A program made the position numbers and the translations under genes. DNA of 64,000 bases, from positions 14,012,001 through 14,076,000 of the forward strand of contig JANJGN010000035.1 in NCBI GenBank assembly GCA_026770705.1, given 5' to 3'. The notes under the pieces were generated by a model that worked only from the letters and a program-made list of their open reading frames with translations, was not told the origin of the DNA and searched no databases. The stretch comes from Isurus oxyrinchus. Taxonomy: Eukaryota. This document shows, piece by piece, positions 3,731 through 24,954 of this stretch; positions within the stretch are counted from its first letter, which is position 1, and each line of letters starts with the position of its first letter.

Positions 3731-3784
3731 ACAAGTCTAAGTGTTAATGACTAACTCAGGATATTTTACAAGATTTATTTCCTG

Positions 3785-4815
3785 ACTCCCCCCTCTTCTT
3801 CCCCTCCTTACAATTCTTACCCTTTACTACCTCATTTCCCTCCCTCTACTGACAGACTCCTCTGCTCTCTACCCCTCTCTCTGTCAGTTCCTCTAGCTAC
3901 GTATCTCCCCAACATCCTCTTTATTCTCTCTCTCTTCTTGTTAATGAATAATTCATGATGTTTTCTGCGATTTTTTTCCCAAATCTCTTTTCGTTTTTCC
4001 TCCTCCTCCACTTATTTTTATTTCTTTCTCCCTCTACCCCCTTCTATTTCCTCTGTCGCGTCTCCCTTCTCTACAACCTCGCCTCCCATGTTCTCTTTCT
4101 CCCTGTCAATCAAATCCCCCACACAGCTCTCCCTTTCTCCTTCTCCATCCCCATCTACATATCGCCCACCCACCACTAGGTCCCGTGCTTTCTCTCTATC
4201 ATTCCCATCCATCCACAACCCATTCTGTCCACCTCTCCCTTTCTGCATCTCCATCCCTGCTACCCCTCCCTCTCCCTGCTCTCCCCCTCTCTTTCATTCG
4301 CCCTCCATCCCTATCTCTCTCTTCCAGATATTTCTCATATGCTCTCCCAGCTCTTTCTCTCTCTTTCCCTCTCTTGCTCAGTGTTTGTCTCTCTCTCTCC
4401 CTCTCTACCTCTGCATCTCTATCTCTCCCACTCACTGCCATCTCCCTGTCCCTCTCTCTGTCCCCCATTGCTCTCCACCATAATCCTTCCTGTCTTGCTC
4501 TCACTGTCTCCAGCTTTATCTCTGCCACACAGTGCCAACTCCTGCTGTCTTTCCCTCTCTCCCTCCTCCCCACACAAAGCCTTGCTGTCTCCCTATCTGT
4601 CTGTCCATCCATCACTATCTCTCCCACCCACAGCCAACTTCTGCTTTCTCTCTCTTTTTCTCCTACCGACCCTACCCCCGCTATCTCCTTCTCCCACTCT
4701 TTCCCTCCATCTCTATCTCTCCTACTAACGCCATATCCCACTGTCAGTCTATCTCTAGATCCCTCTTTGTCTCTATCTTTCTGTCTGTCTCCCTCGTTCT
4801 CTCTCTCCCTCTCAC
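3785..4815 (+). repeat. ~1-kb degenerate CT-rich polypyrimidine tract
   Basis: Almost purely C/T with (CT)n runs; source of the Ser/Leu/Pro ORFs on + and Arg/Glu/Gly ORFs on -. Confidence 0.9.
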
Positions 4816-7800
4816 TTGGAGTTATGTTTTGGCTGTGTGAACTCTGTGGTATTTGCTTTATTTTTAGGTCATTCAGATTATCTTGGGAACGTTGTCCATT
4901 CTCTACTGGATTATTCTGTATTGGACAACGATAGCACTGAGCCCAGTGCCCTTATCAAGAATATAAAGAACACATTGGTTGAGCGGAACATCGGTAAGTT
5001 TCAGGTCGAGGTGTGGAGCAGTTAATCTGAGTTGTAATCGGAGGGTTCGAATTGAACATGTTAGAATGTTGAATTGTATGCGTCCTTTCATGCACCACAG
5101 CATAACTGCTTGAATTTCAATGTCAGTCCGCCAGAAATTAACGCCAATATTTGGTTTGCACTTCTAGGATTTTGTTAATCCTCGTAGCTACTTTCAATCA
5201 CATGTGAATTTCTACTCTCGGTCAACTTATTAGGATATTGGCGATAGTTTTATTCCACAGACCAGAATGTACCACTTCCCACAAAACTGAACTGCAATTA
5301 ATTTGTGAACAGGATTTTCAGATATATTACTACCTCCTGTATTTCTGCTGCAATCTGCTTCAGTGTTAAATATGAACACACATTTCTATTCATCCACAGC
5401 ATCTCTAATGTGCCACGTGAAAATCGTTGATCTCATTTTCAGAGATAATTTGTTACCTCGCCAATACATTTCATTCATAACCTTACAACGATTCCTAAAT
5501 CGTCTTCTCCTCACTTTCTCGGGCTTGCAACTGGCTGGAAGATGTTGTGTTGCATGTTTTTAGATCTGGGATAAATGTCCCCTCACATGACAAACAGTGA
5601 GTTCCATATGTTACAGTCTCACCCGGATGCTCGTGCTGCGTTGCAACATGTTGCTGTGTTAAGTGAGTGATATTATCTCAAGTTGCTTCTTCCTTTTTGC
5701 TACTTTCATCTCTCGTCCACATTGCTCATTGCACCCATCACTTACCTAAGACAGAGCACTTGTATATATGACTCCCTATTCCTTCATCTAACCTTCACCA
5801 AATGCCAGCAAAAACCGTCACCCCAACACACATCAGTAGGAGACAACTCTGATCAAAGCAAGCGAATGATCAAGCAGAAGAAAATAAAAATATTCATAAT
5901 TTATGGCATTTGTTATCTTATAAACATGATCTACCAAGTGAAATGGATATTTTCACTTTTTGTTCCAGTTTATATTTTGTGGGAGCCTGTGGCACTTTCT
6001 GGGAAAGGAATGGAATGCATGCCTTGTGAGTATTTCAATATTGAAATTTGTTGAATCAAAAATTTTTAATTCCAGGGACTTTGCTTTAATGTTTATTTCT
6101 GTAACTAGCCAGTTTAGGGCGGATTCGAAAACGAAACTTCATGCCAAAGTGTACAGCCATCTGGTATCTCAGATGATGGGGTAGAACAGCTATTTGTCTT
6201 ATAGTGTAAAAGCAACAATAGCGAACTGGCAAACCGTGTTACATTTCTCCAATTTCGTATCACAAAAGGAACAGAGTCAAAATCAGAGATTCATTTTAAA
6301 TGTAGATTGAACCAGAGTTGGAATCCCTGCTCATAGTTCTGGACAGAAATGAATAAAGGCATCGGAGAAACTGATCCCAAGGCTGAAAGGGGATCTAATT
6401 TTTCCATTCAGGATTATTCCCCGAGTACATAAAGGGCCACATTTTGTGATATGTCTTGCAGACAAATCAAACTGTTTTTGTTTTGAAATAAAATAATTGC
6501 AATTCGTATTGATTGGAACTTCTATATCTTTGGCTGGGTGCACCAAATGTATTTTCGGCCAAGCATTCAATGGCTGTGTGTGAAACTTCATGGTGGACAG
6601 AATCGAAAATGAATTACTGCTATCTCTCAGAAGCTGTAGGCCTGTCTGGTTGCGAATTTGACCACTGTCTTTGTGCTTTCCTTGGATTTGTTCGTGTTGC
6701 ACGTCGACAACGTCATTTGGACAAAATTATGTGCTTTCGGAAGTGCAGAAGGTCGTTGTGCCTTGTCTGTGAGTACACAGTAAAATATTCACACACGATC
6801 GAATTACGCAAATCCACAAAGGCAGCTCCAGCATTTGTTTGCTTTATTTGTTATAGACTTATTGAGAATGGGCAGTACAGAAGGGGCTCACTCAGTGTTA
6901 CTGTCCCATACCAACCTCCTTTAACATGAATATAGCTTTGCAGGAAAAATAATTTGCGTTTGCCTATCACAATAAACTCAGGTCCTTCTTAGTAGTGTTA
7001 CCAGCCTCACACCCAGAAGAAAAATGGTGGCATAAGCCTGGGAAGCCAAAAACGTATTAAAAGAGATGGGCTTGAGGAGCACCTTAGGGAGCATGGCTGC
7101 TGAGCTGACTGGTGCAATATGGCAAATGGGCAGCTGTGTTTTGTTTGAAATGAAATTTAGGGAAGAATGAAATTGAGCAGGCGTGTCCTGAGAGAATTAG
7201 TATAGTTGAACCTCGAGACACCAGTTACTGATAAGAATTTTCATGTCCACCTACCTAGTTGCCACTTAAAAGCACACAGACAGAAATTGAACAGGTTAAG
7301 CACCCTAAGTCTGAAGTGCCAACGCCGCCACAACACCTCCTCACCCCTCCCCCTCTCCCCTCGTGGCATTTAACAGCCTTTGACTCGTGACAACCTCATA
7401 TTTATCGTTTTGTATTAACTGAATAAGTGGAAAATGAATTACCCTGCGCCTACCTGCTGAAATCTCTGTTTATTTGGAAATATCCCTCCTATATTCACCG
7501 CTCAGACTTCTGTTTTCTAGTTGAAAGGCCCCAGCCTACGCATCTGTTTGCATTGTCAAACACCTTCTTCGCAGTTCCAGAAACCAACTTGTTCGAACTA
7601 CGTTTTGGAGGTTAATTCATTCATGATTTTTTTATGAAGTAAACCGAATATATGGATGACTTTGGCATTGGTGTAAATAGACCACAGTTAGTCGCCTGAT
7701 GCTTTTAAAGGCCGTCCCATCTGCTGCTTGACTTTTTATTTATCCGCTATCCTGGCCACTCATTGCCAAAGGTACCCGCGAATATCCCGCCACCTGAGAT

Positions 7801-8384
7801 TATGAGATAGTACGAGGAAAAGAAAGCCCATACATTTAAACTTACATGGAGGTCTATTCGATGGCAACTGGCGAGAGCTGTCTCCAAACACAGCGTTGCT
7901 CAGTACAATGCTACATCCGATCTGTTTACTTACCCCATGAGTAAATAAATTCTCTGCCCAATACTCTATTTCAATTTTCTGTATGAATTGTGCTGTCACA
8001 GTGGGCACAAGTATCTTCGTATTCGGAGAACTTTCTGCTTATTATCGATTGCACTTAAAATGTTCTTGCCACCGATGTACAGGAATTTCCTTTCGAGCCC
8101 CGAGTCGTCCTCTCTATCCTCGTAGTGTTGGAGATATCCACATCAATCGCTGTTTCTACTTTCGTATGTGAGGCGCTGTGCAGCAATTCAAAGAAACAAG
8201 TCAATAATGTAAGTACGTACTTGGGAACAGTTAATATTCAGTGTTGATCTCAAGAGAAACAAGCGACTGGAATGTACGCTGCACCATTTCTGACCATTAG
8301 AAAGCGTCTTTCAGGGAGCGAAACAGTGTCTTATCAATAGCAGTCTGATTATGACTATCCTATAAATGTGTGTTTTCGTCAACA

Positions 8385-9100
8385 GCTCCAAAAATAAGAG
8401 GGATGTGGATGTCCAAGTGCATGAATCACAAAATGCTATTGTGCAGTGCAGCAAATAATTAGGAAAGCTAATATAATGTTATCATTTATTGTTAGAGGAA
8501 TTGAATACAGAAGTAGGGATATTACGCTTCAGTTGTACAGGCCACTGGTGGCGTTTTGTATCCAGAGCTGGTCCCCTTAGTTAAGTAAGATATAAAAGCT
8601 TCAGAAGTAATTCAAAGAATGTTTGCAAGACTAATACCATGAATGGCACGTTTGCTTATGAGGAAAGACTGGACAGTTTTGGCTTGTATACAATGGAATG
8701 TAGAAGTCTTATTTTAAACTTACTTTAAAAATATTAGAGTCTGAGATGTCTTGATAGAGTGTACATGGAGAGTATGTTCCCTCTTGCAGGGAATCTAGAA
8801 TTAGGGCCACTTCTTAAAATTAAGGGGTCAACCATTAGGACAGATCTAAGTGGCATTATTCCCCTCAGGGGGTGGAAAGCCTTTGGGACTCCATTCGTCA
8901 AAAGGTAGTGAAAGCAGTTTATTGAACATTTTTAAGGCAGAGGTAGATAATTCCTTGATTAACTGGGGAGTGAAAGGGTATCGGATGTCGGTGGGAATGT
9001 GGAGTTGGGGTTATATTCAAACCAGCCATGAAATTATTGAATGGTGCAGCAGGTTCGTGGGGCTGATTGGACGACTCCTGCTCCTTCTCTGTATGTCTGT
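8385..9100 (+). mobile_element. CR1 LINE 3' portion (counterpart ~43912-44640)
   Basis: Degenerate CR1 ORF2 C-terminus ('aaagctaatataatgttatcatttattgttagaggaattgaatac', 'tttaaggcagaggtagat') and a typical 3' UTR ending 'gactcctgctcc...tgtatg'. Confidence 0.85.
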
Positions 9101-9279
9101 ATAGTCAAATCCATGAAATGCAGTCGGAAGTGTTAACTTGGTATGGAAAAGTCTCCGTGACATGAATCTGTGGGTGGTTGTAGAGAATGCATGCTTTTCA
9201 GATGCCAGGGCGTTCCACAAGGCTCATTCTTAGATCAAATACACTTTCCTAACTTCTTTAAACGAACAAAAGGCTGGGC

Positions 9280-10385
9280 TAGGGAAAGACCATGATAAAG
9301 GTCGTGGCTGAAACACAATTTGCCATTTGGTGCATATTGGTGGCTGAGGTTGATGACTCAAGATTGCATAGACAGAATAGCGAAATAGGAAGAGGCATTA
9401 TAGATGGAACTGAATCCTTGTAAGTATTATGCTTGAAAAGGTGAATACGGCAGGACAATGTACCATTACTATTCCGAAAAGTGCATGTATATATATATAT
9501 ATATATATAGATAGATAGATATGTGATTTCATATATATATGTATATATATATATTCATAAAGACAAATATATAACTGGCTGAAATACTAAATTTTGAGAA
9601 ATTCCATTCCGATTGTAAATAAATCACGAGGATTTGACTGATTTACCTTGTTTTGCACCTAGGAAGCACCGGGGATCAGAGGGGTCTCTGTGTACATGCA
9701 CATAGATCCCTGAAGGCAGCAGCACAGGAAGATAAGCTGATTAAGAAGGCAAGTGGGATGCTTGCCGTTATTGGCCATGGCTTGGAGTTTAAGGGCAGGG
9801 GTGCTGAGTTGAAGCTGTATAAAACGTTAGTTAGGCCCCATCTGGATATCTGTGTGCAATTCTGGTCACCACACTGAAGAAATCATGTGATTGCAATGCA
9901 AAAGGTGCAGAGGAGAATCAATAGAGTATTGCCAGAGCTGGAGCATTTCAGCTATGAAGAGAGACTGGATAGGCTGATGTTATCTTCTTCCGAGCAGAGA
10001 AGGCTGAGGGGGGAGCTGATGGATACATATCAAATTGTGAGCGGAATAAATAGGGCAGATAGAAACGTTTCCCCTGAGCAAAAGTGTTAATAAACAGGGA
10101 GCATAGATTAAACGTAAGGGTCAGTGGGCTTCGACTAGGCCCTTTATTTCACCCAGAGGATGGGAGTACCTGGAACACTGCTTGAGAGGGGCATGCTACT
10201 GCTGTTGAGGCAGGAACCCACACAACATTGAAGAAGTGTTCAGATGAGCGTTTGAAATGCCATTGCACACAGTGATATGGGACAAGTGCTGGGAAATGGA
10301 ATTAGAATAATAAGTACTTGGTCATGGGCATGCACACGATTGGCCAAAGGAACGTTGTCTGTGCTATATGATTCAATGACTCTTT
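9280..10385 (+). mobile_element. CR1 LINE 3' portion, interrupted by a TA microsatellite (counterpart ~46285-47045)
   Basis: ORFs 9653 'KKASGMLAVIG...LYKTLVRPHLDICVQFWSPH' and 9887 'KVQRR...YEERLDRL...RRLRGEL' are canonical CR1 ORF2 C-terminal motifs; 3' end 'tgtgctatatgattcaatgactct'. Confidence 0.9.
9487..9553. repeat. (TA)n/(TAGA)n microsatellite
   Basis: Directly visible; absent from copy B. Confidence 0.95.
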
Positions 10386-12483
10386 TTATGCACTGCTTTG
10401 ACATCAATTCTGGTTTCATTCACAGCCGCCTAATGAGTTCACTCTCCTGGACATTGGCTCTAAAACGGCCATAATCTAGGGCCCAGATGTCGCAATGTGA
10501 TACCTCTTGTACTGCTCTATTCCATTGTTCATTAGCACAGCAGGAGGTTCAGTGGGAGCAAATCTGTCACCTACACGAACGAGTCGAGTCCATGACTGCA
10601 GTTGCCTTTATGTCCAGAATGCACGTTGCTGACTGAAGTTTAGGTGAGAAATAGAATAAAGAGACATGGGGGAACTGACCAACTGAATCTGAAAGGAAAG
10701 CAGGAGCTTATTCCTCCCTCCATTATTGTGCTGGCGCTTTGAAAGATTTCTACAATTAATCAGTGTTCCCATGATATTTTCCCATAAGCCCTCAAGTATT
10801 TCATAAATGCATATTTGGAAGCTAATATTGAACCTCCTTTCGCCAGTTTATCAAACCGTATATAAATGTTTTCCCACTTTCCCCTTCACTTTTATCCCAA
10901 GTCTACATACCGCTCCTCTCATCTTCTTATTCTCCCCTCCTCCACCTTGACATCTCAATAATCAGTGATATATTTCCAATAATACCTTTCTGCACTTCTA
11001 CATTTTCTCCCATGTAGCACTTAAATGCCTCCCCTCCGAGGTGCCCAGTGCGGCTGTATAGCCCCGAACCCGCTTGTCTTCACCTGTCATCATTGTTACC
11101 CACTCCTTTCTCAGACTCAGAGGCCCATCCTCGGCACGGCCTTTCATTGATTCTCGTGTTCAAATTCCCAAGTGTTGCACTTTTAAAACGAGGTTTGTTC
11201 GAAAAATACATCAAAACTCTGGCGAAGACCACTTGGCAGAAACTGCTTCGTACCAACCACACCCAGGGTACTTGAGATCAGGGGAAACCTCTCGTTAACC
11301 CCGCCCCTCCCACTCTTTCTTCACTTCACCCATCTGCCCACATTTTTCTATCAATTCCTTGCTCCGCACATGTTTCAAACTCCGGGCATCACTGTAAATG
11401 GATCTCCAACGTCATGAGGTCTTGGGGGGCGGTATGCTAATGAATATTATATTCCTCCTGACCTCTCTTTTCCCCTTTGGGTTGACCGGGTCTCCCTGGA
11501 ATCCAACGCTTAGCTTTCTTTCTCTTTTTGTCATTAAATACCGTGTTCATCAACAGATGCTTCAATTCTATACATAGGCAAAAATAAACCGGGACCTGTG
11601 CCATTCCTTTTCATGTGCTCCCACAATACGCCTGGTCGATCCTCAGCATGGGTGACAATTAGAGTTCATGGTTTACCAGCGTCTGTCAATCCAATTCAGG
11701 CTCCAAAATCCAATTGCTGTAGCGCCTTTTTCCGCATATCCCACCAAGGGCTTCATTCTAAACCAGCAGTGTTCTGAACAGCAGGCAGTCTGCAGCAGTC
11801 TCTTCCATTCACAAATCAGTGAAAACGAGTTACTGATAAACAGGGAAAAATCAAACCACAGGAAGGTCTGACCTGCCTTTCAGCCCATGTGCCACAGTGC
11901 TCCTGGTCGGTTAATGTTGTTCCTGGCCAACAGGCTCAAAGCATCAAATTGGTCTGCGAGAGCGAGCTGCCACGTGGAAGCATTCAATGATCAATATTGT
12001 TAAACACGCTGCTCAGTAAAGTGCTGGGAATGGGACAAAGTCGAGCCTTTTATTATACACATTGCCGTGTCCATTCTTCTTCTTATCAAAAAGCTTACAG
12101 TTTTCACAATTTAGTAATTTACTCAGAATTCCCTTTCATAATTTCAGGGAGACAGGAACAAACTTTTTCACAATCAAATAAAATTTTAATAACGGCATTG
12201 ATTTTCCACACACTAACATTAATGTCGTCCCGTGATTCACGTCGTCTTCAATATTCTGGAGGCCCAAATCATTAACGTGGTAGAAACAGTGGTTTTCACA
12301 TTTCACGTTGCTGTTAAGGAGCCAGTCGTTGGCTGGGAGCAAGACGAGATACTGGGAGGCAGTCGGACTAGCTTGTGTTGGCAATGATCTATTGAGGGCG
12401 AATTATGACTGGGGAAAATAAGGAGGCGAGGGATTTGTTGTGAGATCATGGAGAGCATGGGGTGGGGGATAAAATCTGATGAA

Positions 12484-12556
12484 GCTTGGGTAGTTTATTC
12501 GGTACAGTACACGAGATTGAGTCTGCGAGTTCACGGTTCGGGTGTTGCATTTCCCA
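12484..12556 (+). pseudogene. Highly decayed tRNA-Lys(UUU) pseudogene, module A, copy A
   Basis: GCTTGGGTAGTTTATTCGGTACAGTACACGAGATTGAGTCTGCGAGTTCACGGTTCGGGT aligns without gaps to vertebrate tRNA-Lys-TTT (GCCCGGATAGCTCAGTCGGTAGAGCATCAGACTTTTAATCTGAGGGTCCAGGGTTCAAGT) at roughly two-thirds identity; upstream flank homologous to that of 18861/54244. Confidence 0.7.
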
Positions 12557-12934
12557 CTACAATTGAGTAGGTGAAAGGCAATTCCTGCTGCATTCTCTTG
12601 GTCCTTCAACAAAAGCTGAGATTAAGACATGCCAGGCTGAAATAGTCTGCCACTAACAAACTGTTTAAACACCGGGGATATGTCGATCAGAATACCATTA
12701 CTTCTGCTACACTGAACAGAATGGGAGCCACAGTGTTCACATGTTACACTATATAAACATTCAGAGCGCAGAACCTCGCTAATTCATCTGTTCCTGCTGA
12801 CTCTCGGAGGTATATATAATTCTGGAGGATGCCTGTCTGAATAGCAGGGGCAGATGCAGCAGGTAGTGACCGTCTCAGCAGCTCCAATGATCAATGGGCC
12901 CGCAGTTTATTTCCTACCTGACTCACAATTTCCT

Positions 12935-13100
12935 GAATAGTCCTTATATACCTTGATTCTCACAGGCCCCTACCAATTATCGCTCTCAATCTTGAATACA
13001 CTTAGCCGGCACCTACTGTCCACCTGTATCCAGAATTCAAATGATTCACAGGCCTCTGTACACTCGGACAGCTTCCTTCAATCGAACGTCTAATTCACAT
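12935..13100 (-). mobile_element. Short CR1 3' fragment (counterpart ~49630-49790)
   Basis: 'tcaatcttgaatacactt...agaattcaaatgattcacaggcctctg' is the reverse complement of CR1 3' coding/UTR sequence. Confidence 0.55.
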
Positions 13101-13274
13101 TGTCATTGAGCAAATGTCCTTCCCTCTTCCTCCTCTCTTCCACCTCTCCTCCTTCAATACTGCTCCCATCTTCTTCCATCCCCTCCCTACCATCTTCCTC
13201 CTCCTGTCGCTTCAATTTCCCCCTCCCCCAGTTCATCCCACTCTTACTATACCGCCTCTCCTCTCTTTCTCCTC

Positions 13275-13830
13275 ACAGAGTCACAGAGTGCAGAAGAGGC
13301 CCTTTGACTAATTGAATCTGCACCGACACATGAGAAACCCATGACCTACCTACCTAATCCCATTTACCAGCAACTGCCCGATATCCTTGAATGTTATGAC
13401 ATGCCAAATGCTCATCCAGATACTTTTTAAAGGAATTGGGTCAATCTGCCTACTCCACCCTCCCAGGCAGCGCATTCCAGATCTTCACCACACTCTGGTT
13501 AAAAAAGGTTTTCCTCACATCCCCCCTAGAACTATTGCCCCTCACCTTGACCGTGTTTCCCCTTGTGACCAGCCCTTAGACAAAGTGGAAAAGCTGCTCA
13601 CTATCCAGGCTGTCCATGCCACTCATAACCTTGTACACCCTGATCAGGTCGCTCTTCAGTCTTCACTCCTCCGAGGAAAACAACTGAAGACTTTACAACA
13701 TCTCTTCAAAACTTAACTATATCATCCCAGGCAACATCTTGGTGAATCCCCATTCCACCATCTCCACTGCAATCACATTCTTCACTTAATGTGGCGACCA
13801 CAACTGCACACAGTTTTGGAAGAATAAAAT
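13275..13830 (-). mobile_element. CR1 LINE 3' end
   Basis: Starts with the tandem tail 'cacagagtcacagagtgcagaagaggccc'; ends in 'tgtggcgaccacaactgcacacagt' (reverse of ..CVQ.WSPH). Confidence 0.85.
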
Positions 13831-14369
13831 ACATTTACAGGACAATTAAGGGTTAAACGGTTAAAATCATAGTGGAATACTACAGCACTGTTCCCAATTT
13901 TGCTCCCGCAGGCACACCTGCAGCTGCCAGCTAATTGAGCAGGAAAGCAAGAAAGGAGTATCGTAAACAAGCTGCCTAGAATCCTTCATGCAAGGGTGGG
14001 ATGTCTGCCCCATCAAAAAGGGACAGAATCAAGCAATAGTCGTTTCTGCTTTAGCATATTCACCCCCTAGCACTATAGATAAGGTCAAGCAGGGTTATCT
14101 ATTCTCTGTCTTACATTTATCACCAGATGAGCTCCTCCTAAATTCCTGGGTAGTCATAATCTAGAATAGATCGATTGTATACTGCATGCTGTAAGCAATG
14201 ATTCTCATTGTAATTAATTATTGCAATTTAGACAGTTTTGTCACCTTCAGGCTCTTTGATGTGTACAACGTTTGCTATAACTATTTGTGTACTCTGATAC
14301 TTCTCCAGAGTGTCAGCTAGCTCCACTGTAAGCTGCTGGGCTCTCCGTGATATCACTTTTTAGTATAAG

Positions 14370-15070
14370 GCTTCCGAGACAAACCTCCTGGGTCTGAGTG
14401 TTCACTCCGATTTCTGCGACAACAGTACTCTAGCTGCGGCTACACCAAATTTTGATACAACTCCCAAAGGAACACTCTGCTTTTCTAACCTATGCCTCAA
14501 ATGATAAAGACCAGTGCCCCATAAGGCTTTTTCACGACCCAACTAACATGCCCCTCCGCCTTCATTGATCTATGGGCACCTACCCAAATGTGCCTTTGTT
14601 CCTCAGAACTTCTTAGCGTATGCCATTCTTTGAATACTTCCTTTGCAAGTTACTCCTTCCAAGGTGAACCAGCTCAGACTTTTGAAAGTTAATTTCTATC
14701 TGCCACTTACCTTGGTACCCGAGCATTGCGTCTATATCTTCCTCCAGCTCAAGACACTGAACATCAATGTGAACCAACTGGCCAATCTTTGTATCATCTG
14801 CAAACTTACCTAAATCTACCCTCCCCATAGCCATCTATGTCGCATATATCGATCAAGAGTTATAGGGGACCCAGTGCTGATACCTGAGATGCGTCACTGG
14901 ACACTCTCTGGCAGTCACTAAAGCATCATTCTGTCATCACACTCTGTCTCTTACAACTAAGCAAATTTTCAATCCACCTTATCAAATTGACCCGTACCCA
15001 TGTGGAATTGTCCTCTTTATAAATCTCCCATGCGGGACGTTTCAAAGGCTTTGCTGAAATACATATCAAA
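14370..15070 (-). mobile_element. CR1 LINE RT fragment
   Basis: ORF 14613-14834(-) 'GKFADDTKIG...KWQIEIN..K..LVHLGRSN' matches the CR1 RT catalytic region. Confidence 0.85.
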
Positions 15071-15399
15071 TACATCTCCAACCCTCCTACTCCCCCAGTC
15101 CCTTTCCCTTCTACCCCTCTTCGCCTCCCCGTCCAACACACCCAAACTCCACCCCTCTTGCTACCCCGCTCCCTCTCCACCCCACGATTCGTGTACCGAA
15201 ATCCAATGCTACAAAGCATGAAATTACTTTCAGATTCTTCGGCCCAACGTTAGGCACCTGGATCAGTTGGTTAAAGAGCCAGGAGTGCCGAGAACTGCCC
15301 TTCAATTTATCTCCTGTTGATTAGTTCCAACGTTCCAGCAAGGGGAAATGTATCAGTCGTTAAAGTGAAAGTGTTCACCTAATAGAAGTCTTCAAGACA

Positions 15400-15577
15400 G
15401 TGCGATCAGTACAGAGAAGTAAACAATCATTTGGCCCATTATAAAATCCAGCGTTCAAGGTGGACTACGGTGGTGCAAGAAAGCAACTGATCAGAACCCT
15501 CTCAAAAGCAACAAGTGTTGGGTAATAAATGCTGGTCGAGCCACTGAAACCAACATCCCGTGAGTGAATAAAAAAAA
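15400..15577 (+). mobile_element. LINE/SINE-shared 3' tail fragment (counterpart ~50270-50467)
   Basis: 'taataaatgctggtcgagccactgaaaccaacatcccgtgagtgaataaaaaaaa' matches the tail of the LINE at 34640-35482. Confidence 0.7.
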
Positions 15578-16004
15578 CGCTTAATATTCTTACTTATGTT
15601 CAGGTGTAAGGAGTTATATTGAACGAGAAGATTGTGGCGGGAACTGTGAGCCCCCGACAAGGAAGGACTGAATGATCAGTCTGGGTGCACACCCGGCAGG
15701 AAAATCTTGGGGGGAGCGATGATAAGTGGAGGCATTGTATTTCCAAATCGATTAACTGCCCTTTAATATGTCATTGCCACAACTTATTGAGTGACACCCA
15801 ATTAATCTTCTTGCTTTAAACGTCGGTGAAATCACAATTTCTCGCCACCAAGAACAATTGACTCTTTGTCTTGACCCAAAATGCACCCCACACCCCATTC
15901 GATTTGGAACTTTCCGCAGTCATTTCTTGATCTGTGTCGCTCCTGAAGGAACGTTAGCCTTCAAAACATTGAGGGCCCAGTGGAACATTCCGGGGTTTTG
16001 CTGG

Positions 16005-16325
16005 TCTTTTGGCACTGTGACTGAAAACCAATAATCCACCAACCCAGGGGAACCGGTTTCGTGTCTGGCTATAGTAGATGCTGCAGTTTCAACTCAATGA
16101 ATGGCAGGACTTAAAAATCTAACGATGTCATGAAGCCATTGTCACCATAACCCACCTGGTGCACTAATGCCCATTCAGGAAGCAAATCTGCTGTCTTCAC
16201 CTTTTCTGGCCTGCGTGGAGACCACGCCAACGATCGAAATATGGTTCACTCGTGAAAATGGCGCCTATAGAAGGGTGGGCTATAAATGCAAGCCTAGACA
16301 GTGACAGCCAACATCCCACAAACAG
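16005..16325 (+). mobile_element. Degenerate tRNA-derived SINE (counterpart ~50895-51200)
   Basis: Body 'acccacctggtgcactaatgcccattcaggaagcaaatctgctgtc' plus tail 'ataaatgcaagcctag..cagccaacatccca'; copy B retains the B-box 'gggtccgaatcccacc'. Confidence 0.75.
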
Positions 16326-16592
16326 ATATTTGTAACAGTTGCCAAGTTACACGCCACCACTGCGACATATCGAGCAGTTGGTCAGCGAGACGGCTGATAA
16401 ATGCAAACTTAAACTGGCCCTCACTTTCAGTTTTGAAATTGTCACATCTTGCGCAAATTTTCTTCCATTCAATCTTATTTTTTTCAGAATACATTTCTAG
16501 ACGGACTTTTTGATTTATCTTTTAAAAAAGTTTCCTGACTTGATTGGGCTAGATATTCCCATTCTTCAGGGCAGAGGAATCAGTTTCTCTGC

Positions 16593-17000
16593 TGTAATGA
16601 TGGGTGTGATTTTGTTTAAATGTTTTTTTGGAAATATGGTGATAGTCTGTACAGAAGGATGTGTGTGTGTTTGTGCTTGTGTTTGATCATGATTAATTAA
16701 ACTGGGGGAGTTTAGTAAAAACAACTTGACTGTGAAGATGGCGTGATAAATGGTGTTCGGTGCATGAATTTGTTATGACTGTCTGGATTTAAAAATGAAT
16801 AAGCTGGATTTAAAATTAGTTTAATGAGATAAGTGGAGACTTGGTTTTTCAGCTGCTGATTTTCAAAGGGAAGTTTAGAAGTGACAAGGAATTTTCAGAA
16901 CTTGCAACGGTTTCACAGGTAAAAAGGGCAAAATATATTAAATAATTTTGACCCAAATGAGAGACACTTGGAGAACATAGATTTTTATACTTTGAGAATT
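16593..17000 (+). mobile_element. Possible truncated LTR fragment (counterpart ~51961-52400)
   Basis: Begins TGTAATGA, with composition and style similar to the inverted solo LTR just downstream; no 3' terminus identified. Confidence 0.3.
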
Positions 17001-17226
17001 ACGATTTTCTGTTTGGTGGACCAGCACTTCAATCAACTAACTCACTGCGCTGACAGCACTGAGATAATTTTAAATCCAATCCTCTAAATTGCATCAGCGA
17101 ATTTTCCTACATGCATCACTTAGAATTGTTGACACATGGTGATGGCTTTCTAGCAGTGCGCATGATATGTCTTAGCAGTTAATAAAGCTGAGTTATTTAA
17201 AGGCCCAGCGGGAAACTTTAAACAAC

Positions 17227-17931
17227 TGTCACAACTTATATTTTATGTGGTATGTTTGAGAGGCTGCTCTAAGTAGAGGAATCGGAACATCAGTTTTTGA
17301 GAGATTTTTATATTAAACTGGGTGAACCATTTAATTAAGTTACAACAGATTAAACAATGATACATGGTTACAAATTACGGCTGTCATAACATTTAACAAA
17401 TTCCCAAACTAACCTCGATTAATGCAACAACAACCCATTGGCTTTGAGCAGACACCAGGCAAAGCATATTCAGCTTACATATTCAAAATGAGGTCTATTA
17501 CAATTTGGTTCCTTTGCAGGCACAGTGTAGGCTTACAGGTTTTGATGTTGATTTGCCGCTGCCCTGCAGACACAAAATTGTTGTCTGTTATAGCCAGCAC
17601 ATTGAATGTAAATTCTCATTGTATTACAAGTCCCCTTGAACGCCACGACGTCTAACATTAAATTCCCTTTCATAGCACCAATTTTATTAGAAATATAAAC
17701 ATATTGCTTGTTCTCTGCTAGCTAGATGCCATGTTTAACTCACCGTCTTCAATGCTATATGCAACAAAATGGAAATGTACTTTTCCTCTCTCATATCTCA
17801 AAACTAGTATACGCCAAAGCCCAAAGACGAGCTCGCTTTCAGCCAATTGAGTCACACTGACAGAATAACCATCTATTTAAAAATAATAATAATAATAGTT
17901 TCTAATAATATACATTAATAGCTTCATGACA
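17227..17931 (-). mobile_element. Solo LTR (~705 bp, Gypsy-like)
   Basis: Bounded by inverted termini TGTCA...TGACA in both copies (17227/17931; 52634/53317); possible eroded 4-bp TSD caac/taac. Orientation inferred. Confidence 0.6.
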
Positions 17932-18860
17932 TGAATGATTGGAATAAGCATTGGAGCTCACACACGAAAATTGATCAATTCACCGCCAACAGAGTGGATC
18001 ATGCACAGTTCCACCAATTGTATGCCATTCAAAATTGCAAACAGGTATATTTTTTCATGGCACATTCCTGGTTTGATAAAACCGTGCCCTGCTGCACCAG
18101 TTAACACCCCTTAATGCCCTGTCATCCGAAGTTATTTATTGCACTCGCTGTACGTGACTGCCTGACACTATGGTAATGAAAAGGCAAGGGAAGTGACAAT
18201 TAAAGTCATCTTCTATCGCCACAAATGACGCCTGATGTGCTGAGCATTTCGAACATTCCGCTTTTTTATTATATATTATATAGAGTTAAGAAGAAAGAGA
18301 GGAGATGAGATTGAAACACAAAATATTTTAAAAGGTTGGAGAGGATGCACTTCTTACACAAATTAGCTCGATGGAAATGTACGACACATTCCATAAAAGG
18401 AATATGGAGTTGGAATTTTGGCTACAGAAATTTATTTCATTTAAACCGAATCGGCATTCTTACTTTCAAAGTGGGTGATATCAAACATTCCCATCGCCAT
18501 GAGCAAATTACGTCATTGCATAAACTCCAAACCCATCCGCATCAATTTGGATCCTGGCACTGTCATCTCTACAACTCAATGCTTGCTCCTTAATTAACAT
18601 AATTTTCAACATATTCAGAATTCGGTGCAGAAACTCATGGTGGGTGTGTGAGAGTGGTCATGTCGTACGAGACTTTGAAATAGTGAGTAGTCACTGGTAG
18701 TGAGAGGATTGATGAAGCAAAGGCAAAGCGAGGGATTCGGAACGCTGGTGTTGGAAATCTTCTGCAGCGTGCGCATTTGTTTGTATTTGAACGACAAGCA
18801 AAAAAATGTAATGTCTGTTGTGAAACACTGAGTAGCGCTGTGTGAAAGCACCTAATCAAA

Positions 18861-18932
18861 GCCCAGATAGCTCAGTCTGCAGAGTATTAGCGATTTAATC
18901 TGATGGTCGGTGCGTTGACTGTGAGACTGAAG
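18861..18932 (+). pseudogene. tRNA-Lys(UUU) pseudogene, module B, copy A (A-box kept, B-box/T-arm lost)
   Basis: GCCCAGATAGCTCAGTCTGCAGAGTATTAGCGATTTAATCTGATGGTC matches 39 of the first 48 nt of vertebrate tRNA-Lys-TTT; anticodon TTT in place; no GTTCRA afterwards. Confidence 0.85.
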
Positions 18933-19014
18933 CCAGTCTGCAAGAGCCCAGAGCTAAAATGCGAATTTCCAAGGTGTGCTTTGCCAGGATTCTGTTAAAT
19001 CGATGTGTCTTCCC

Positions 19015-19100
19015 CTTTGAAGAACAGTCAAAGGGAGAAGAAAAGCTAACTCTGTTTCTCTCTACGTTAATGTGGCCAGTTCTTCCAGCGTTTTCGTTGA
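19015..19100 (+). mobile_element. Penelope-like element terminal remnant (counterpart ~54445-54520)
   Basis: 'tgaagaacagtca...gaaaagctaactctgtttctctct...ttcttccagcgttttc' resembles a PLE pLTR end with an eroded CUGANGA..GAAA core. Confidence 0.5.
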
Positions 19101-20254
19101 CAATACTTGCCTCACCGTTTGTGTAGATGAAAGTCAGATTAAATGGGGGATATGTAGTTATTACACACGTAATTCTGTAGGTTATATGTCTGTGCATACA
19201 ATGGTCCTTGTAGGAAAGCCACAGCCTATGGCACTGGGTCACAGAACACTGCGGTGACAGCCTCCCTTCAAGGAAGGCCCAAACTCCACCACCTCCATTC
19301 ACCGCGCACCTCAGGTATCAATCAGCAATGCATGCCTCCTAAGTCCAGCTGGCCACGCTCGCCGACACTAGCCTTCCAGCAACCCCCTCACAGATATGGA
19401 GGGTCCAGATGAACTCGGACTCACTGTTCGTCACATAGCAGGTCCAGACTATTCAGTTCGCCACCTATCTCTGAGCATTCTTAATTCTTCCAAATGTTCC
19501 TCGAACTTCAGCAGCTGGTATTACGCCTCACCTTCACAATTTACATAGCAGTCCATCCTCATGGCCCTCTTTTCCTTTGGCGGAAGCGGGAACAATCCAT
19601 GTTTGTGATTTCAAAATTGAAAAAAATAGCGGTGAAATTACCAGACTGCTGTTGCAATATCTTCGCACTCTTTCTATCTACCATCTGACTGTACATTTTT
19701 AAACCTTGCTTATGGCAAATGTAATTTGGATGCAATTAGATGTTCCTAATTTTGATCACTGTCATATCTTGGATGTGCATTTTAAATTTCAGACCCAGTA
19801 GCCCATTCCTTTATTAAATAAGGGCTTGTTCACTGTAGAACAGGGCAGTATGAGATGAATAGCATTGATCCACTTGACAGGAAGGAGAGTGATGCCAAGC
19901 CAAGAACTCTTTAAGTCAGTTTCTCCTCAGAATATTAAATAACAAGAGCTGTTATCATGCAAACTCGATCAATTTTTTTAGCATTTGACAGGGAATCTAA
20001 TCTAAATTTATATCTGTTAAAATGATGTTATTTTATATTTTCTGGATGCACCCGTTGCTAGGAATTGAGAATTTCCCTGTTGCACTGAGAGAGGGGTTTC
20101 ATTTGACATCGAATATCCCCTCCCTCACACCACCCCTCCACTCCCCCTTCTTGCATTAAATGATGACAATGAATTTTGGATGCTCAGCAACAGGGCTGCT
20201 CTGAGTTCTTGTTGTGTTTTGGTTCCCCAGTGTTGGCTGTAATCATACATTAAT

Positions 20255-20378
20255 CTTGGAAGGATATGGGCTCTTCAACAGGCAGGAAGTGGAGTTAAGG
20301 CAACAATTAGATCAGCCATGAATGGCGAGCAGGCTGTGTGGGCCAAATGTCCTTACCCATGATCCTATTGCTTAAGCT
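20255..20378 (+). mobile_element. CR1 3' UTR fragment
   Basis: 'aggatatggg...ggcaggaagtggagttaagg...gatcagccatgaatggcgagcaggct..gggccaaatg...cctattgctt'. Confidence 0.7.
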
Positions 20379-20689
20379 TCTGTTGCCACAAGACAGCAAT
20401 CTTTTTGTCACTGAGCTATTAAGCCCTAGACACATGCTGAATTTCTGATGACATATTAGAATTTAATGCCCAACGTTGGATAATGAATTCTCTTGTCTCT
20501 GCTGTCTTTTACAAAAGTACAAGTTTTGAGCAGGTCCTCAGAGACATTGCAAAACATCCCAAAAGTTTCTGATGTTCTTTTCCAAAAAGATAAGTTTCTG
20601 ACGTGAATGAAGATAATTAATTCGAACCAAAGAGATGAGTTTGATGCGGCTCTGAAATGCAAGGGTAGAAATTTATGCCTATCTCATTT

Positions 20690-21990
20690 TTAACAACTCT
20701 AGCACCTCCGACCCTCTCCATAACTGTATAATCCTCCAGCTCCTACAACCCACACAGCGTCTGTAGCCTCATTTAACGTCGTTGCCCGATTGTACACACT
20801 CCCAACCCCAACCTTTGTACAATTTTCAAGCCTGTACGAACAAACATTTCGCCAAACCTCTCCCAAATGTTGAAAACCTTCCTATCTCTGTAAAGTACCT
20901 CAGCTACAAAAAAAATCATATGACTTTAACCTCCTCCAGCTACTACAACCATCCCTACCACTTTAAAATTTGTAAGCCCTTCATATCTCTTGAAACCTAT
21001 TCGGGCCCTAAAACATTGCCTTTTAACTTATAGTCATTTAGCCTCTACAATAATTCCGATCTCTATGAGATCTTCCACACATTAATACCCTCCTTGTCTC
21101 TGTAACCTCATTGAGCACATAAAAGGCACTGCATCAGTGAACTGTTTTGCAAATGCTACAGCTCTCCCAATGCCTGTTACTTTTTCTAGCCCTACAACAG
21201 GTCCTGTCTCTGTAACCTCCTCCATTCCATAAGATAACCAATGATCTCTTTATCCTCCACCAGTCACTACATCTATCCAACTGCCTTAAACCTTAAGCTG
21301 CCAGAACAATATTCTGTAACACGGCATCGCCCTCCAGCAACTACCTCCCCTTCTATCGCTGTAAACTCCTGCAGCCCCATAACTATTAATATATCTGCAA
21401 AATCCCTACAGTGCCTATAACCCTCCCTATCTAACTTACCCCCTCCATCTCCTGCAACCCTTCATATCACTGTAACATCCTACTGCTCGTACAGCGCCCA
21501 AATGTCTATAGCGTCCTCCAACCCATACATTTTCCCATCTCGGTAATCAGCTCTAAACCCTGCAATCCTCCCTATCTCTGCAACGATCTCAAACCCGCAC
21601 AACACCCCTATCTCTGCAACCTCCTTCAGTCCCCACAAACATTCCTAACTGTAAAATCCCTACAACATTCTGTAAATCTGCAACCCCCTGAAAACCCTAC
21701 CGATCTCTTTTTTTTTGTGTAAATTCCTCTAGCTTCTGCAATGCTCCCTATTTCTATAACATCCTCCAGCCCCTGCAACAACCAATAACTCTGTATCCTG
21801 CTTGAACCATTACAAACCTCCCAAATTCCGTAAAATTATCAAGTCAATACAACCCGCCCTATCTCTGTAACCTCCTCTACACTCCATAATCATTCTTCTC
21901 TCTGTAGCCTCCGCCAATCCTAAAAAATACAAACACACCGCCCCCCACCCTCGCACCACACTATCCCTATAACCTCCCTCAACCCCAAAA
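20690..21990 (+). repeat. Degenerate 37-bp satellite (~35 units), consensus CCCTCCCTATCTCTGTAACCTCCTCCAGCCCCTACAA
   Basis: Recurrent 'ccctatctctgtaacctcctccagcc..tacaa' at ~37-nt spacing. Confidence 0.9.
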
Positions 21991-22244
21991 TTCATTAGAG
22001 CTTTGCTTTTACTCAACGGATTATATTTACAACTTGGAAGCAATGTTTCCCATTATACAAGAGTAAATTCATTCATAAAAAAAATAATTCAATATTGGTA
22101 TCTTATTTGTGGCGTATTATATTTCGTGAAAGGCAAGGTTAAATTATTTTGTTTATGTATTTCACAATTCCTACATCAAGGCATACAATCTCACAAAACA
22201 CAACATGATAGGAAGGAACATTTTTCCCCAAATATTTTGCTTGG

Positions 22245-23355
22245 AAGATACGCAGTAGTTTATATGGCGCAATGCTTCAGGGTTTATTTTACTAGACTTC
22301 AATCCAGGTACTCTATACCTAATAGAGTAGGTATTATATTACAGGATTCATAATCCAATGTACAGTTGGATAGGGGTTATATTATTAAGCAAATATTCAA
22401 GGGTACACTAGTTTAAGGTTTATGTTACCGGACTAATAATCCAGGGCACAGTAATTTAGGGGTTATGTAACTGGACTATTAACCAGGGTACAGGAGTTTA
22501 GGTTTTATGTTGCTGACGTAATAACCCAGGGGAAAATAGTGTGAAGGTTCTGTCAGTGGACTGATAGCCCACAGGATAGGAGTACAGGGGTTATGCCATT
22601 GGACTAATTATCTAGTTTGCAGGATTGTAGGGCCTATGTTATAGAGCTAATAATCTAAAGTGCAGTATTGTAGGGATTTATGCTGCTGGAATTATAGTCC
22701 ATGGTAGATTAGCGTAGAGGTTATGTTACTTGACCAATAATCCAGGATAGAGTTGTTTGGATATTAGGCTACTGGGCAAATTATTCATGGTACAGTAATA
22801 TTTGGGTTATGTCACTGTCTAATAATCCAGGATACAGTAGTGTAGAAGTTATTGTGTTGGTCTTCAAATCGAGTTTACAGTACTATTAGTTTTGTCTTAC
22901 TGCAATAACAATCCAGGGTACAGCATTGTAGGCGTTGTGTTGCTGTACTAATAATCAATGGCAAAGTCGTTTAAGGATTATGCTATTGGGCTAATAATCC
23001 AGGCTATATTAGTGTAGGGATTCTTTTGCTGGATTAATAGCACAGGAACTGTAGTATTGGGGTTATGTTACTGGAAATATAATCAATTTTACTGCAGTGC
23101 AAGATTATGTTACTGGATTAATAATTCGGTGTACAACAGTGTAGGGAACATTTTTACTGGACTAATAAACCAGTCTGTAGTACTGTACGGATTATTTTAT
23201 TAGACATGTAGCATATACTACAGTGGTATAGTCACTATATTACACGATTTATAATCCAGGGCACAATAGTGTATGTGTGTTACATTACTGACGACATTGG
23301 AAGTTTCAATAGTGTACTGGGTGTGTTTTTGCATTAAAAATCCAGGGTACCGTGT
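22245..23355 (+). repeat. Degenerate 43-bp satellite (~26 units), consensus CAGTAGTGTAGGGGTTATGTTACTGGACTAATAATCCAGGGTA
   Basis: e.g. 22401 'gggtacactagtttaaggtttatgttaccggactaataatcca' (43 nt) followed by near-copies; resembles the SINE tRNA head. Confidence 0.9.
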
Positions 23356-23360
23356 TTAGG

Positions 23361-23640
23361 TTTTTTTTTGCTGCTTTGCGGGATGGGGGCGTCCCTGTTT
23401 TGTAAACATTTATTGGCCCTCGCTTGTTGCCCTTGAGATGGTAGTGGTGAGTCGCATTGTTGAACCGCTGCAGTTCCTGCAGTCTAGGTTCACCCACGTT
23501 GCCGTTAGAGATGGAGCTGCAGATTTGTGATGCAACAAGAGTGACGGAACTGTGATGTATTTCCCAGTCAGGACGATGAGTAGTTGGTGGGGTTTTGAAG
23601 GTGATGGTGTTTCTTGCAATCGCTTCCATTTAAAGCACTT
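23361..23640 (-). mobile_element. LINE 3' tail (same family as 34640-35482), copy-A specific
   Basis: T-run then 'gcgggatgggggcgtc...catttattggccc...cccttgagatggtagtggtgag...ttgaaccgctgcagt'. Confidence 0.8.
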
Positions 23641-24154
23641 GTCATTATTCATCGAGGACGCTACACTCTCTATAGAATTAACATAAAATAACCTGAATCA
23701 ACGTGAAAATTATTTACTTATTCATGTTAAACACTTATCAAGACACTTGTGTTCTAAGTGTCCACTATGTTGAAAGCAGATTGAATAATCCGTTGTTAAA
23801 AGTAACTCGATGGGCAGTGTTCCTTCCGTTTGCAAAACAGAAGACAGATTTACAGGCAAATGGATTCATTCTCTAATCCAAATTTACAAACGCAAAGGCA
23901 CATCAAGCATGGAGTGTCAGCAAAACCTGACGTGACATACCAACCTGATGAGACATAAAAGTATTTAGCAGTTAAACTAGAGACGCCAGGTCAGTCGAAG
24001 CAAAAAAAATAAATAATCGATTATATCTTTTGAACAGAGGTACAATAGTTGAAACTTTGTCCCTGCGTTCAAAATGTAAAATGCGCTGGAGCACAACTCG
24101 GCTCAAGTACAACTTGGCATTTCAGTGCAGAAAGGTCAATACGGAAAATCCTCG

Positions 24155-24478
24155 TCAACATCTAAGCTGGGCATTGAGAAGTACAGGCCATGGGCGAACG
24201 TGGGTGCCGTCTGCACGAATGTCTGCCCCTATTCCGCTAGCCCTGGCATCCCTGGAGAAGGAGCATGCGCTGTCTGCCAACTCTATGGAGGCCTTCCAGG
24301 CTCGGTTGGGCACCGCGAGGACTGGGGTGTTTTATTTAACCTGTTAATCATATTTTGTTTTAATATTTATAAAGTGCTTTTAAACTTTGTCTTTGTTTCT
24401 TCAGTTCCAATTTATGTGGCTAGCCTTTAACGATGTCGCTAATTTGGTTAATTTAGTTTATTTGGTTGACTCAAAAGT
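24155..24478 (+). mobile_element. Tx1/L1-clade LINE 3' end (5'-truncated)
   Basis: Frameshifted translation gives 'KLGIEKYRPWA..GAV...CLPLFR...ASLEKEHALSANSMEAFQAR', resembling the recalled Tx1 ORF2 C-terminus (..AI.RSRQ....DCLPLFRGY.RARVSLE.EHAVS..TLEAF.ERW), followed by a T-rich 3' UTR. Confidence 0.7.
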
Positions 24479-24507
24479 GTTACAGGGAACAAAAAATGGT
24501 TTGAAGT

Positions 24508-24676
24508 ATTTTGTAGGACAGAATTTGAGTGTTGCTGAAAAAAGAGACATGTCAAAACTTTGCCTTTTGCACTCATCAGGACAGTTGGTTGCCTTGCAAA
24601 GTGATCTGATGAGTGCAAGATGAAAGGTTCAACGTGCCTTTTCTTTTGGCAAAAGTCAAGTTGTTACTTACAAATT
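24508..24676. mobile_element. ~170-bp fold-back of two inverted Penelope-type minimal hammerhead remnants
   Basis: Arms 24508-24579 and 24606-24676 are reverse complements (perfect 13-bp core TTGCACTCATCAG/CTGATGAGTGCAA); + arm has CTGATGA(24606-12)-gtgcaagat-GAAA(24622-25). Confidence 0.75.
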
Positions 24677-24954
24677 AGGATGTGAAATGCATTGAATACA
24701 TTTGCCTGACCATATGCAATAATCAGAGAAAATATCTGAATATGCATTGAGCTGCCCTTAAAACAATTTGGTGTACTTTCTAATTTGAGCTCCACCTTGA
24801 AGTGCATGGTACCTGAAAACCTGTGGTACACAAGTGGCAGATCTGCATTCGAAGGGGAGGTTGGGCGTTCAGGAATGGGCTGTTAATGCCATAGAGATCA
24901 GCATGTGCCAAGGTCCAAGTGAAAATTTCTCCATATTGGAAGTCAACCAGGTTG

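Follow-up and report, generated by a model that had tools for sequence, protein, structure and literature searches.

The four sites noted earlier in the window, the whole 64,000-nucleotide stretch of contig C35 from Isurus oxyrinchus analysed here, are dead copies of a tRNA-Lys(UUU) gene. We consider it highly probable that they are pseudogenes in a dead, megabase-long Lys(UUU) tandem array. Repeated unequal crossing-over likely produced the array, which then probably decayed neutrally, since its tRNA is supplied by other arrays on contig C35. The array spans C35:13.38-14.35 Mb, where a cassette-bearing unit is repeated about 24 times. The cassette consists of five modules, A+ B+ C+ D- E-, with an internal inversion, and occupies 6-11 kb of a 31-52-kb unit. 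It is represented by 95 modules (A 21, B 14, C 20, D 20, E 20) in 26 clusters of constant order and strand. The units lie head to tail, keep the order of the cassette and have flanks in common, as expected for a tandem multi-tRNA unit. The hierarchy of small module and then macro-unit proposed in the earlier note is borne out by this structure, amended by the five modules, the internal inversion and an additional level of four interleaved unit clades. Its unit length of about 36 kb fits the pair in the window (36.7 kb) but not the array-wide range. The features of the window are given in Table 1.

Table 1. Features of the two macro-units in the window.
Feature	Position	Strand	Remarks
macro-unit 1	1..35750	+	clade R; boundary arbitrary; modules A and C only
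module A upstream flank	12060..12483	+	homologous to C, E and far-B flanks
tRNA-Lys(UUU) remnant type A	12484..12558	+	44/73 matches; likely degenerate before unit amplification
unit-1-specific high-copy repeat insertion(s)	13150..15150
module B far-upstream flank relic	16313..16403	+	B gene itself not found in unit 1
module C upstream flank	18440..18860	+	about 2 kb homology to flanks of intact genes at C35:17.0 Mb
tRNA-Lys(UUU) remnant type C	18861..18912	+	50/73 matches; 3' ~20 nt deleted
deletion junction, loss of modules D and E from unit 1	19080..19213
macro-unit 2	35764..64000	+	clade S; continues beyond window end; full A-B-C-D-E cassette; 68-72% identity to unit 1
tRNA-Lys remnant type A	49159..49231	+	42/73 matches
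tRNA-Lys remnant type B	51645..51716	+	51/73 matches; absent from the earlier list
tRNA-Lys remnant type C	54244..54316	+	55/73 matches; TTT anticodon retained
facing inverted segment pair, homologous to D upstream flank	55184..55870		55184-55453 +, 55588-55870 -; near cassette inversion axis
tRNA-Lys remnant type D	56232..56283	-	3' part deleted; gene alone weak (9.6 bits), located via flank (341 bits)
tRNA-Lys remnant type E	57408..57480	-	alone not significant (score 32.5, ~99th percentile of random); located via flank (236 bits)

With an intact gene from locus L005 as nhmmer query against a 1.06-Mb target, the remnants at 18861 and 54244 reach 21.4 bits (E 2e-4) and 33.5 bits (E 2e-8), and those at 12484 and 49159 reach 10.8 and 10.7 bits (E about 0.6), respectively. 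Global alignment scores for 12484, 18861, 49159 and 54244 are 52.5, 68, 53 and 92, against a chance maximum of 51 among 1000 random 100-mers of the window. The A sites at 12484 and 49159 are marginal alone, since both scores lie near chance; their signal is common to 21 positional homologues. Homology to a functional Lys-TTT gene exceeds chance clearly for B, C and D, and only collectively for A and E. Taken together, nhmmer, global alignment and positional homologues confirm the four tRNA-Lys(UUU) remnants, and the array is of a single isotype, as had been claimed. The remnants are neither four in number nor all on the + strand, since there are others at 51645 on the + strand and at about 56283 and 57480 on the - strand. 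The 3' deletion at 18861 is common to a copy at C35:13736056. That decay has made the genes invisible to standard tRNA scans also holds: ARAGORN finds 0 tRNA genes in the window and a single one over the full 1.06 Mb, and an Rfam search at E<=10 matched none of the remnant sites.

If the remnants were fortuitous resemblances to a tRNA or products of misassembly, the weakness of the individual A and E sites would be accounted for. This explanation is refuted for B, C and D and is extremely improbable overall, as A and E have at least 20 positional homologues each and there are intact sister genes with the same flanks. A and E are supported by flank homology and by column majorities that match the functional gene at 49/73 and 48/73 bases. 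An artefact is contradicted by units that are about 70% alike and by short-read contigs from two organisms that independently cover the sites.

The modules also share their upstream sequence. Similarity between A and C extends to about -425 and lies above shuffles, in agreement with the roughly 400 bp or more reported before. The shared motifs at 12356, 18730 and 54105 do lie 128, 131 and 139 nt before 12484, 18861 and 54244, and the tgtga(g/a)a motif is located at -45 (12439) and -42 (18819). In a flank-only test, for which the last 25 nt before the gene were left out, a C-flank profile at >=15 bits detected 18/21 A flanks and 0/21 each of shuffled and reversed sequences. It further detected 19/20 E and 10/14 far-B flanks, 0/20 D flanks and 0 shuffles. 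The tgtga motif was considered as a common promoter element of Lys genes and rejected. It is inherited flank, because 30 intact genes located away from the sister locus gave no match to the A-E flank profiles.

The genome search scored the best candidates only, which makes confinement to C35 a lower-bound result. Among these candidates, all matches of the A module (17/17), of the unit body (29/29 and 39/39) and of those covering the C flank are on C35; for the D flank, this applies to 40/40 of the matches listed. Given that the flank shared by A, B, C and E exceeds shuffles and matches only C35 among the candidates scored, we conclude that the modules arose by DNA-level duplication and not by retroposition. 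The competing possibility named in the earlier note, a flank belonging to a TE dispersed genome-wide, does not agree with these matches. One RNA-type copy of the C gene is present on another contig, C2, to which a C-type transcript was likely retrocopied. This copy speaks for modules derived from a SINE with a tRNA-Lys part or from another dispersed mobile element, a reading that is largely refuted and that we regard as very improbable. The shared part lies upstream of the tRNA, outside the Pol III transcript; flank matches are on C35 only, among the candidates scored, with order and strand fixed; and the C column majority is the exact functional gene. Read depth over gene plus flank is near single copy (23-91), whereas true repeats have depths from the thousands up to the hundreds of thousands. 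A shared body downstream of a tRNA head, dispersed and at high copy number as in tRNA-derived SINEs, was not found.

Having traced the modules to DNA-level duplication, we turn to the units. Unit trees resolve four clades with 100% support that are interleaved along contig C35. The interleaving fits block duplication, and the expansion likely proceeded by unequal crossing-over. Across the array, units are 66-85% identical to each other, compared to about 94% for the orthologous unit of a second organism, which argues against homogenisation of the units. This orthologous unit is also dead and shows 141 differences in 2336 bases across 17665-20000, against 28-37% between units. The proposal that the array was inflated by TEs applies to the 2-kb insertion at 13150-15150, which is specific to unit 1, but most of the inter-gene spacer is common to the sister locus with intact genes.

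The macro-unit might instead owe its amplification to another gene or element within the 30-kb body, such as a decayed protein gene, a lncRNA or a structural satellite-like unit, with the tRNA cassette as passenger. The small share of the cassette in the unit would agree with this, as would the likely earlier death of A and E, the lack of retained constraint in C and D, and the tandem ART genes and GPCR pseudogenes that flank the array. We nevertheless consider it unlikely. The deviation is flat over the unit (mean 0.174, SD 0.023, 1790 windows), with no exon-like peak and no clear 3-base period. ART and GPCR queries have no real match inside the array, and the unit body has no matches beyond array and sister among the best candidates scored. 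At the Pfam cut-off, 0/125 and 0/13 reading frames of the window gave a match. A gene that had died as early as the tRNAs would go unnoticed in each of these analyses. A scan for conservation and 3-base periodicity, together with Pfam on stop-free frames, revealed no hidden protein gene in the window. Also for a tRNA-Lys(UUU) array, the tRNAs may have been passengers when a 40-kb unit with two or three live genes was amplified.

Functional paralogues persist on contig C35, with intact genes at 13.28-13.33, 14.7-16.96 and 16.99-17.10 Mb. An intact tRNA-Lys-TTT with the same flank, for which the earlier note proposed to search, was found in a sister unit at C35:16.97-17.10 Mb, 2.7 Mb away. It contains perfect C and D genes, with four genes matching at 73/73 bases. 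The Lys arrays at 14.7-16.96 Mb have flanks unrelated to the dead array. Exact matches to the 5'-26mer fall at C35:14.74-17.10 Mb in 47/55 cases and inside the dead array in none, among the best candidates scored. The best gene copy of the array retains 63/73 bases, and 0/51 matches in the array reach 55 bits, compared to 4 to 10 such genes in each neighbouring region examined. The array is presumably no present source of tRNA. At the sister locus, purifying selection is indicated by perfect genes amid 17-20% diverged flanks. The body/flank divergence of 0.71 (C) and 0.54 (D) is itself not significant, with 89/517 and 216/634 flank windows being equally low. Rfam over the sister region gave tRNA only (18 matches) and no other ncRNA, and Pfam on its stop-free frames gave only reverse transcriptase fragments of inserted retroelements (4/86).

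The array gene bodies are without purifying selection and have diverged as fast as their flanks, with pairwise body/flank divergence, CpG columns left out, of 1.03 (A), 0.92 (B), 1.02 (C), 1.30 (D) and 1.03 (E). Column majorities, which are biased by clade sizes and are not ancestral states, differ from the functional gene at 24 (A), 25 (E), 0 (C) and 1 (D) positions. At the start of amplification, C and D were likely still intact and A and E likely already dead. Divergence in the inner 5' flank of the dead copies is in excess 2.1-fold for D, 1.5-fold for C and 1.6-fold for A, and is not raised for B and E; for the sister C genes the excess is 2.3-fold. As a marker of activity, this hypermutation gave a mixed result and is not clean, because it is also raised in A, which was likely dead before amplification. 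Three-point shared distances for C/D over 73 sites are 0.148/0.038 in clade Q and 0.064/0.167 in clade S, which is only suggestive of reciprocal retention of C and D among unit clades. RNA-labelled contigs match high-copy repeat bins only and are not evidence on expression. A tentative and rather doubtful extension is that the array preserves a fossil trace of past transcription. C and D would still have been transcribed by Pol III without selection after amplification, leaving a mutagenesis scar in the 15 upstream bases, which for D falls mostly on early branches. The clades would have kept C or D reciprocally, until the megabase domain was silenced as a whole and younger arrays along the chromosome took over the supply of Lys(UUU). 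If true, dead tRNA arrays could be used for dating the last gene activity.

For the dead tandem array, we propose the following history. Local duplication of the gene-plus-flank module with partial inversion would have produced A+ B+ C+ D- E-; the homology is observed, and the order of events is our reconstruction. Judging from the column majorities, A and E would have decayed first while C and D were intact. Together with about 30 kb of adjacent non-coding sequence, the cassette would then have given four unit types and, by presumed crossing-over, the mixed blocks of about 24 units seen today. Constraint was lost in all copies, as body divergence equals flank divergence, and homogenisation would have ceased. 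In the sister unit, purifying selection appears to have maintained C and D, and the cassette alone was re-amplified.

The closest known system is the Ser-Tyr-Tyr array on Arabidopsis chromosome 1, described by Kane, Freeling, and Lyons 2010 (PMC2886086) as 81 genes in 27 triplets under concerted evolution, many of them functional. There, too, a cassette formed first and was then amplified as the basal unit, for which unequal crossing-over is proposed, and the units carry putative pseudogenes. In contrast to its two isotypes, the C35 array has a single isoacceptor and units of 31-52 kb that differ from each other by about 30%; they are not homogenised, and none of their genes is still intact. 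Similar to the tRNA turnover in primates and flies, as outlined by Velandia-Huerto et al. 2016 (PMC4981973), it combines tandem duplication, escape from concerted evolution and pseudogenisation, with gain balanced by loss. Unlike the single loci or small clusters presented there, a whole 1-Mb array is dead and its flanks still permit a phylogeny of modules and units. According to the available part of the Squalomix survey (bioRxiv 10.1101/2025.06.08.657570), elasmobranch tRNA loci are clustered by the hundreds on one chromosome, which resembles the grouping on C35. Histone genes accompany the largest cluster of that survey; among the best 150 of 2496 histone candidates, 0 are on C35. That part of the survey describes no single-isotype fossil array, and such remnants would be missed because tRNAscan scores under 50 are discarded. 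According to Thornlow et al. 2018 (PMC6130373), active tRNA genes have excess divergence in the 20 upstream bases. The upstream excess in sister C (2.3-fold) and dead C and D (1.5-2.1-fold) is similar, but here it sits in dead copies and also in A (1.6-fold). Within the open literature, leaving aside subscription papers and bioRxiv supplements, we found no dead single-isoacceptor tRNA macro-array and no paper on this locus.

The process is the birth-and-death of a tandem tRNA array, which is already known, and the C35 array is an unusually complete example that alters no textbook mechanism. tRNA gene turnover is normally deduced from counts because live paralogues are identical. Here, the order of duplication and death is directly readable from 95 dead modules whose flanks can be aligned, a sister unit that is still alive and the dead orthologue of a second organism. 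Mutation rates could also be measured on the array, as its roughly 1 Mb of sequence is age-matched and apparently neutral. A near-4-Mb region of contig C35 is dominated by one isoacceptor, and standard scans detect its living part only.

For the four tRNA-Lys remnants proposed in the earlier note, all on the + strand, the quoted upstream motifs and their distances to the tRNA starts are present in the window as claimed. Against an intact Lys-TTT gene from the fetched genome piece L005, 18861 and 54244 score significantly, and 12484 and 49159 are marginal one by one. In global alignment, all four score above every one of 1000 random 100-mers, 12484 and 49159 barely so. The four sites stand, but the list is incomplete, and two of the further remnants lie on the - strand. 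Standard scans indeed miss the remnants: ARAGORN finds 0 tRNAs in the window, and Rfam (E up to 10) reports 0 of the 4 sites. The two copies of the large unit in the window share 68–72% identity at an offset of 35.4–36.7 kb. Of the cassette's five gene-plus-flank modules (A–E), unit 1 has retained just A and C; C has lost its 3' end, D and E are deleted, and the B gene was looked for in this unit and not found.

Features in the window and in fetched genome pieces (L); scores are against the intact Lys-TTT gene
Feature	Position	Strand	Unit	Bit score	Matches
tRNA-Lys remnant	12484	+		10.8	44/73
tRNA-Lys remnant	18861	+		21.4	50/73
tRNA-Lys remnant	49159	+		10.7	42/73
tRNA-Lys remnant	54244	+		33.5	55/73
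Extra tRNA-Lys remnant	51645	+	second		
Extra tRNA-Lys remnant	about 56283	-	second		
Extra tRNA-Lys remnant	about 57480	-	second		
Private 2-kb repeat insertion	13150–15150		1		
Repeat insertion	29250–31250				
Degenerate minisatellites, 37- and 43-base	21150–23125, 61190–62840				
ART frame	L190:9034–9945	-			
ART frame	L196:559–1320	-			
Rhodopsin-family GPCR frame	L180:4349–4963				

The window spans C35:14012001–14076000. From the 4.98-Gb genome we fetched 1.06 Mb surrounding it and 0.2 Mb at 16.96–17.16 Mb of the same contig (C35). Type-specific profiles detect 95 modules (A 21, B 14, C 20, D 20, E 20) at 13.38–14.35 Mb, in 26 clusters of the order A+ B+ C+ D- E-, spaced mostly 31–52 kb apart. 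We count about 24 units, since two clusters 11 kb apart resemble a cassette that was split and two clusters consist of one module each. The array has decayed as proposed, with 0 of 51 hits of at least 15 bits reaching 55 bits, and the fetched regions flanking it on both sides hold 4 to 10 genes of at least 55 bits each. ARAGORN reports one gene in the 1.06 Mb. C35:14.74–17.10 Mb holds 47 of the 55 exact genome-wide matches to the gene's 5' 26-mer; a 38-mer has 167 genome matches at up to one mismatch, none in the array among the 100 matches listed. Two unit segments were used for trees (21 and 17 rows, limited to copies that span at least 85% of the segment). These give four fully supported unit clades, interleaved along the contig as recurring blocks, which is a further level of repetition. 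The insertion at 29250–31250, common to only ~8 other units, marks one branch of the unit tree. The units also carry degenerate minisatellites.

Once the tRNA and the 25 bases next to it are removed, the C-flank profile reaches 15 bits in 18/21 A flanks, 19/20 E flanks, 10/14 far-upstream B segments and 0/20 D flanks, compared with 2/300 random array segments and none of the shuffled and reversed controls. The A–C similarity extends to about -425. From these scores we infer that a single module gave rise to A, B, C and E, the last in inverted orientation. The D flank is distinct and recurs downstream of A and C. An element dispersed genome-wide would be the alternative source of the shared flank. 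Genome matches lie exclusively on C35 for the A module (17/17), the C flank, the D flank (among the 40 matches listed) and the unit body (29/29 and 39/39), all counts being lower bounds. Read depth of gene-plus-flank bins is near single copy and that of true repeats very high, and a SINE origin is rejected on both grounds. Of 30 intact Lys genes from elsewhere, among them those of the 14.7–15.7 Mb arrays, the flank profiles match none; they do match modules at 13.27–13.36 and 14.36–14.44 Mb, some with near-intact genes.

The column majority differs from the intact gene at 0 of 73 positions for C, 1 (a gap) for D, 6 for B, 24 for A and 25 for E. Read as the state at unit amplification, this makes an intact gene likely for C and D and an already dead one likely for A and E. 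Gene bodies have evolved without constraint since, as body-to-far-flank ratios of pairwise divergence are 1.03 (A), 0.92 (B), 1.02 (C), 1.30 (D) and 1.03 (E) with CpG columns removed. The window's dead unit 1 is also present in a second organism, where 17665–20000, a span that includes the C remnant and the D–E deletion, shows 141 differences. Set against the 28–37% between units, this would give the array about five times the age of the split between the two organisms, on uncorrected, uncalibrated distances.

The proposed inflation by transposable elements holds in part. Unit 1 has a private insertion, and high-copy repeats occur in about half the 667-base bins of 20001–40000; the spacer between modules, however, is mostly colinear with the sister locus, so the cassette was stretched little after its death. 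The unit might instead have been amplified for something else, with the tRNA cassette as passenger. Deviation along the unit is flat without an exon-like peak, 0/125 and 0/13 window reading frames reach the Pfam cut-off, and neighbouring ART and GPCR proteins have no match in the array interior. As a gene that died early would slip past all these tests, we regard a passenger cassette as improbable rather than negligible. Right of the array lie tandem NAD:arginine ADP-ribosyltransferase (Pfam ART) frames, with a broken copy at C35:14.493 Mb; the GPCR frame and related broken copies at 13.298, 13.341, 14.427 and 17.147 Mb flank the tRNA region.

The cassette has a living relative. The sister unit (16.97–17.10 Mb) has its upstream 20 kb in single copy and its B–C–D part re-amplified. 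Here the intact tRNA-Lys-TTT with the same flank is found, in four genes at 73/73; Rfam gives 18 tRNA matches over 150 kb. Sister C flanks diverge by 16–22% from the array majority. The sister unit (L052–L054, 16.97–16.99 Mb) deviates from this majority by only 0.11–0.16, compared with 0.165–0.18 for array units (leave-one-out), with the gap greatest at G/C sites; mutation may be faster in the dead array. Upstream of the live D genes, a stretch of about 200 bases (L061:7600–7800) deviates from the array majority by only 3–4%, against ~11% nearby, a possible constrained element; an inverted pair of it lies between C and D, and it recurs downstream of modules at 13.28–13.36 Mb. Three recent 14-kb duplicates of the sister locus have young reverse-transcriptase elements (L061:3571–6330, L062–L064), open up to 920 aa, at the same spot between C and D. 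ARAGORN assigns a TTA (ochre) anticodon to Lys-derived genes at L058:8963–9037 and C35:14.793 Mb. Younger Lys-TTT arrays with unrelated flanks (14.65–14.82, 15.27–15.37 and 16.92–16.96 Mb; L208–L227, L235–L245) have a period of about 4–4.5 kb, combine decayed with intact copies, include some Val-TAC and Met genes, and vary strongly at -15..-1 among otherwise near-identical copies; 14.65–14.82 Mb holds 112 Lys hits in 170 kb.

Sister C genes show 2.3-fold more divergence in their 20 upstream bases than in the far flank (0/623 windows as high), an excess that Thornlow et al. (PMC6130373) link to activity. Among the dead array copies, the ratio over -15..-1 is raised in D (2.11, p<0.0002), A (1.59, p 0.001) and C (1.53, p 0.012), and stands at 1.30 in E (p 0.07) and 0.92 in B, in columns that are not tree-independent; the raised value of A runs counter to a simple activity reading. 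On another contig (G000:C2:57263432–57273826; L228–L229), nine tRNA-Lys genes, 91–94% identical to sister C, match it from -3 to ~118 bases downstream of the gene, end in a T run and lie within concatenated copies of a short tRNA-like repeat. Their likely origin is a single read-through Pol III transcript (pre-tRNA) that was retrocopied and then tandemly duplicated, seeding a new array. This is indirect evidence for germ-line transcription of the sister C gene, now or in the past.

We found no description of such a locus in the literature searched. A concertedly evolving array was rejected. The Arabidopsis Ser-Tyr-Tyr array (PMC2886086) is alike in that the cassette formed first and the unit was amplified after, and large tRNA clusters are reported in this lineage (bioRxiv 2025.06.08.657570). 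The array fits tRNA birth-and-death as outlined in PMC4981973 and would be a further example of this known process, set apart by its size, its restriction to a single isoacceptor, its nested levels and the death of every copy next to a living sister.
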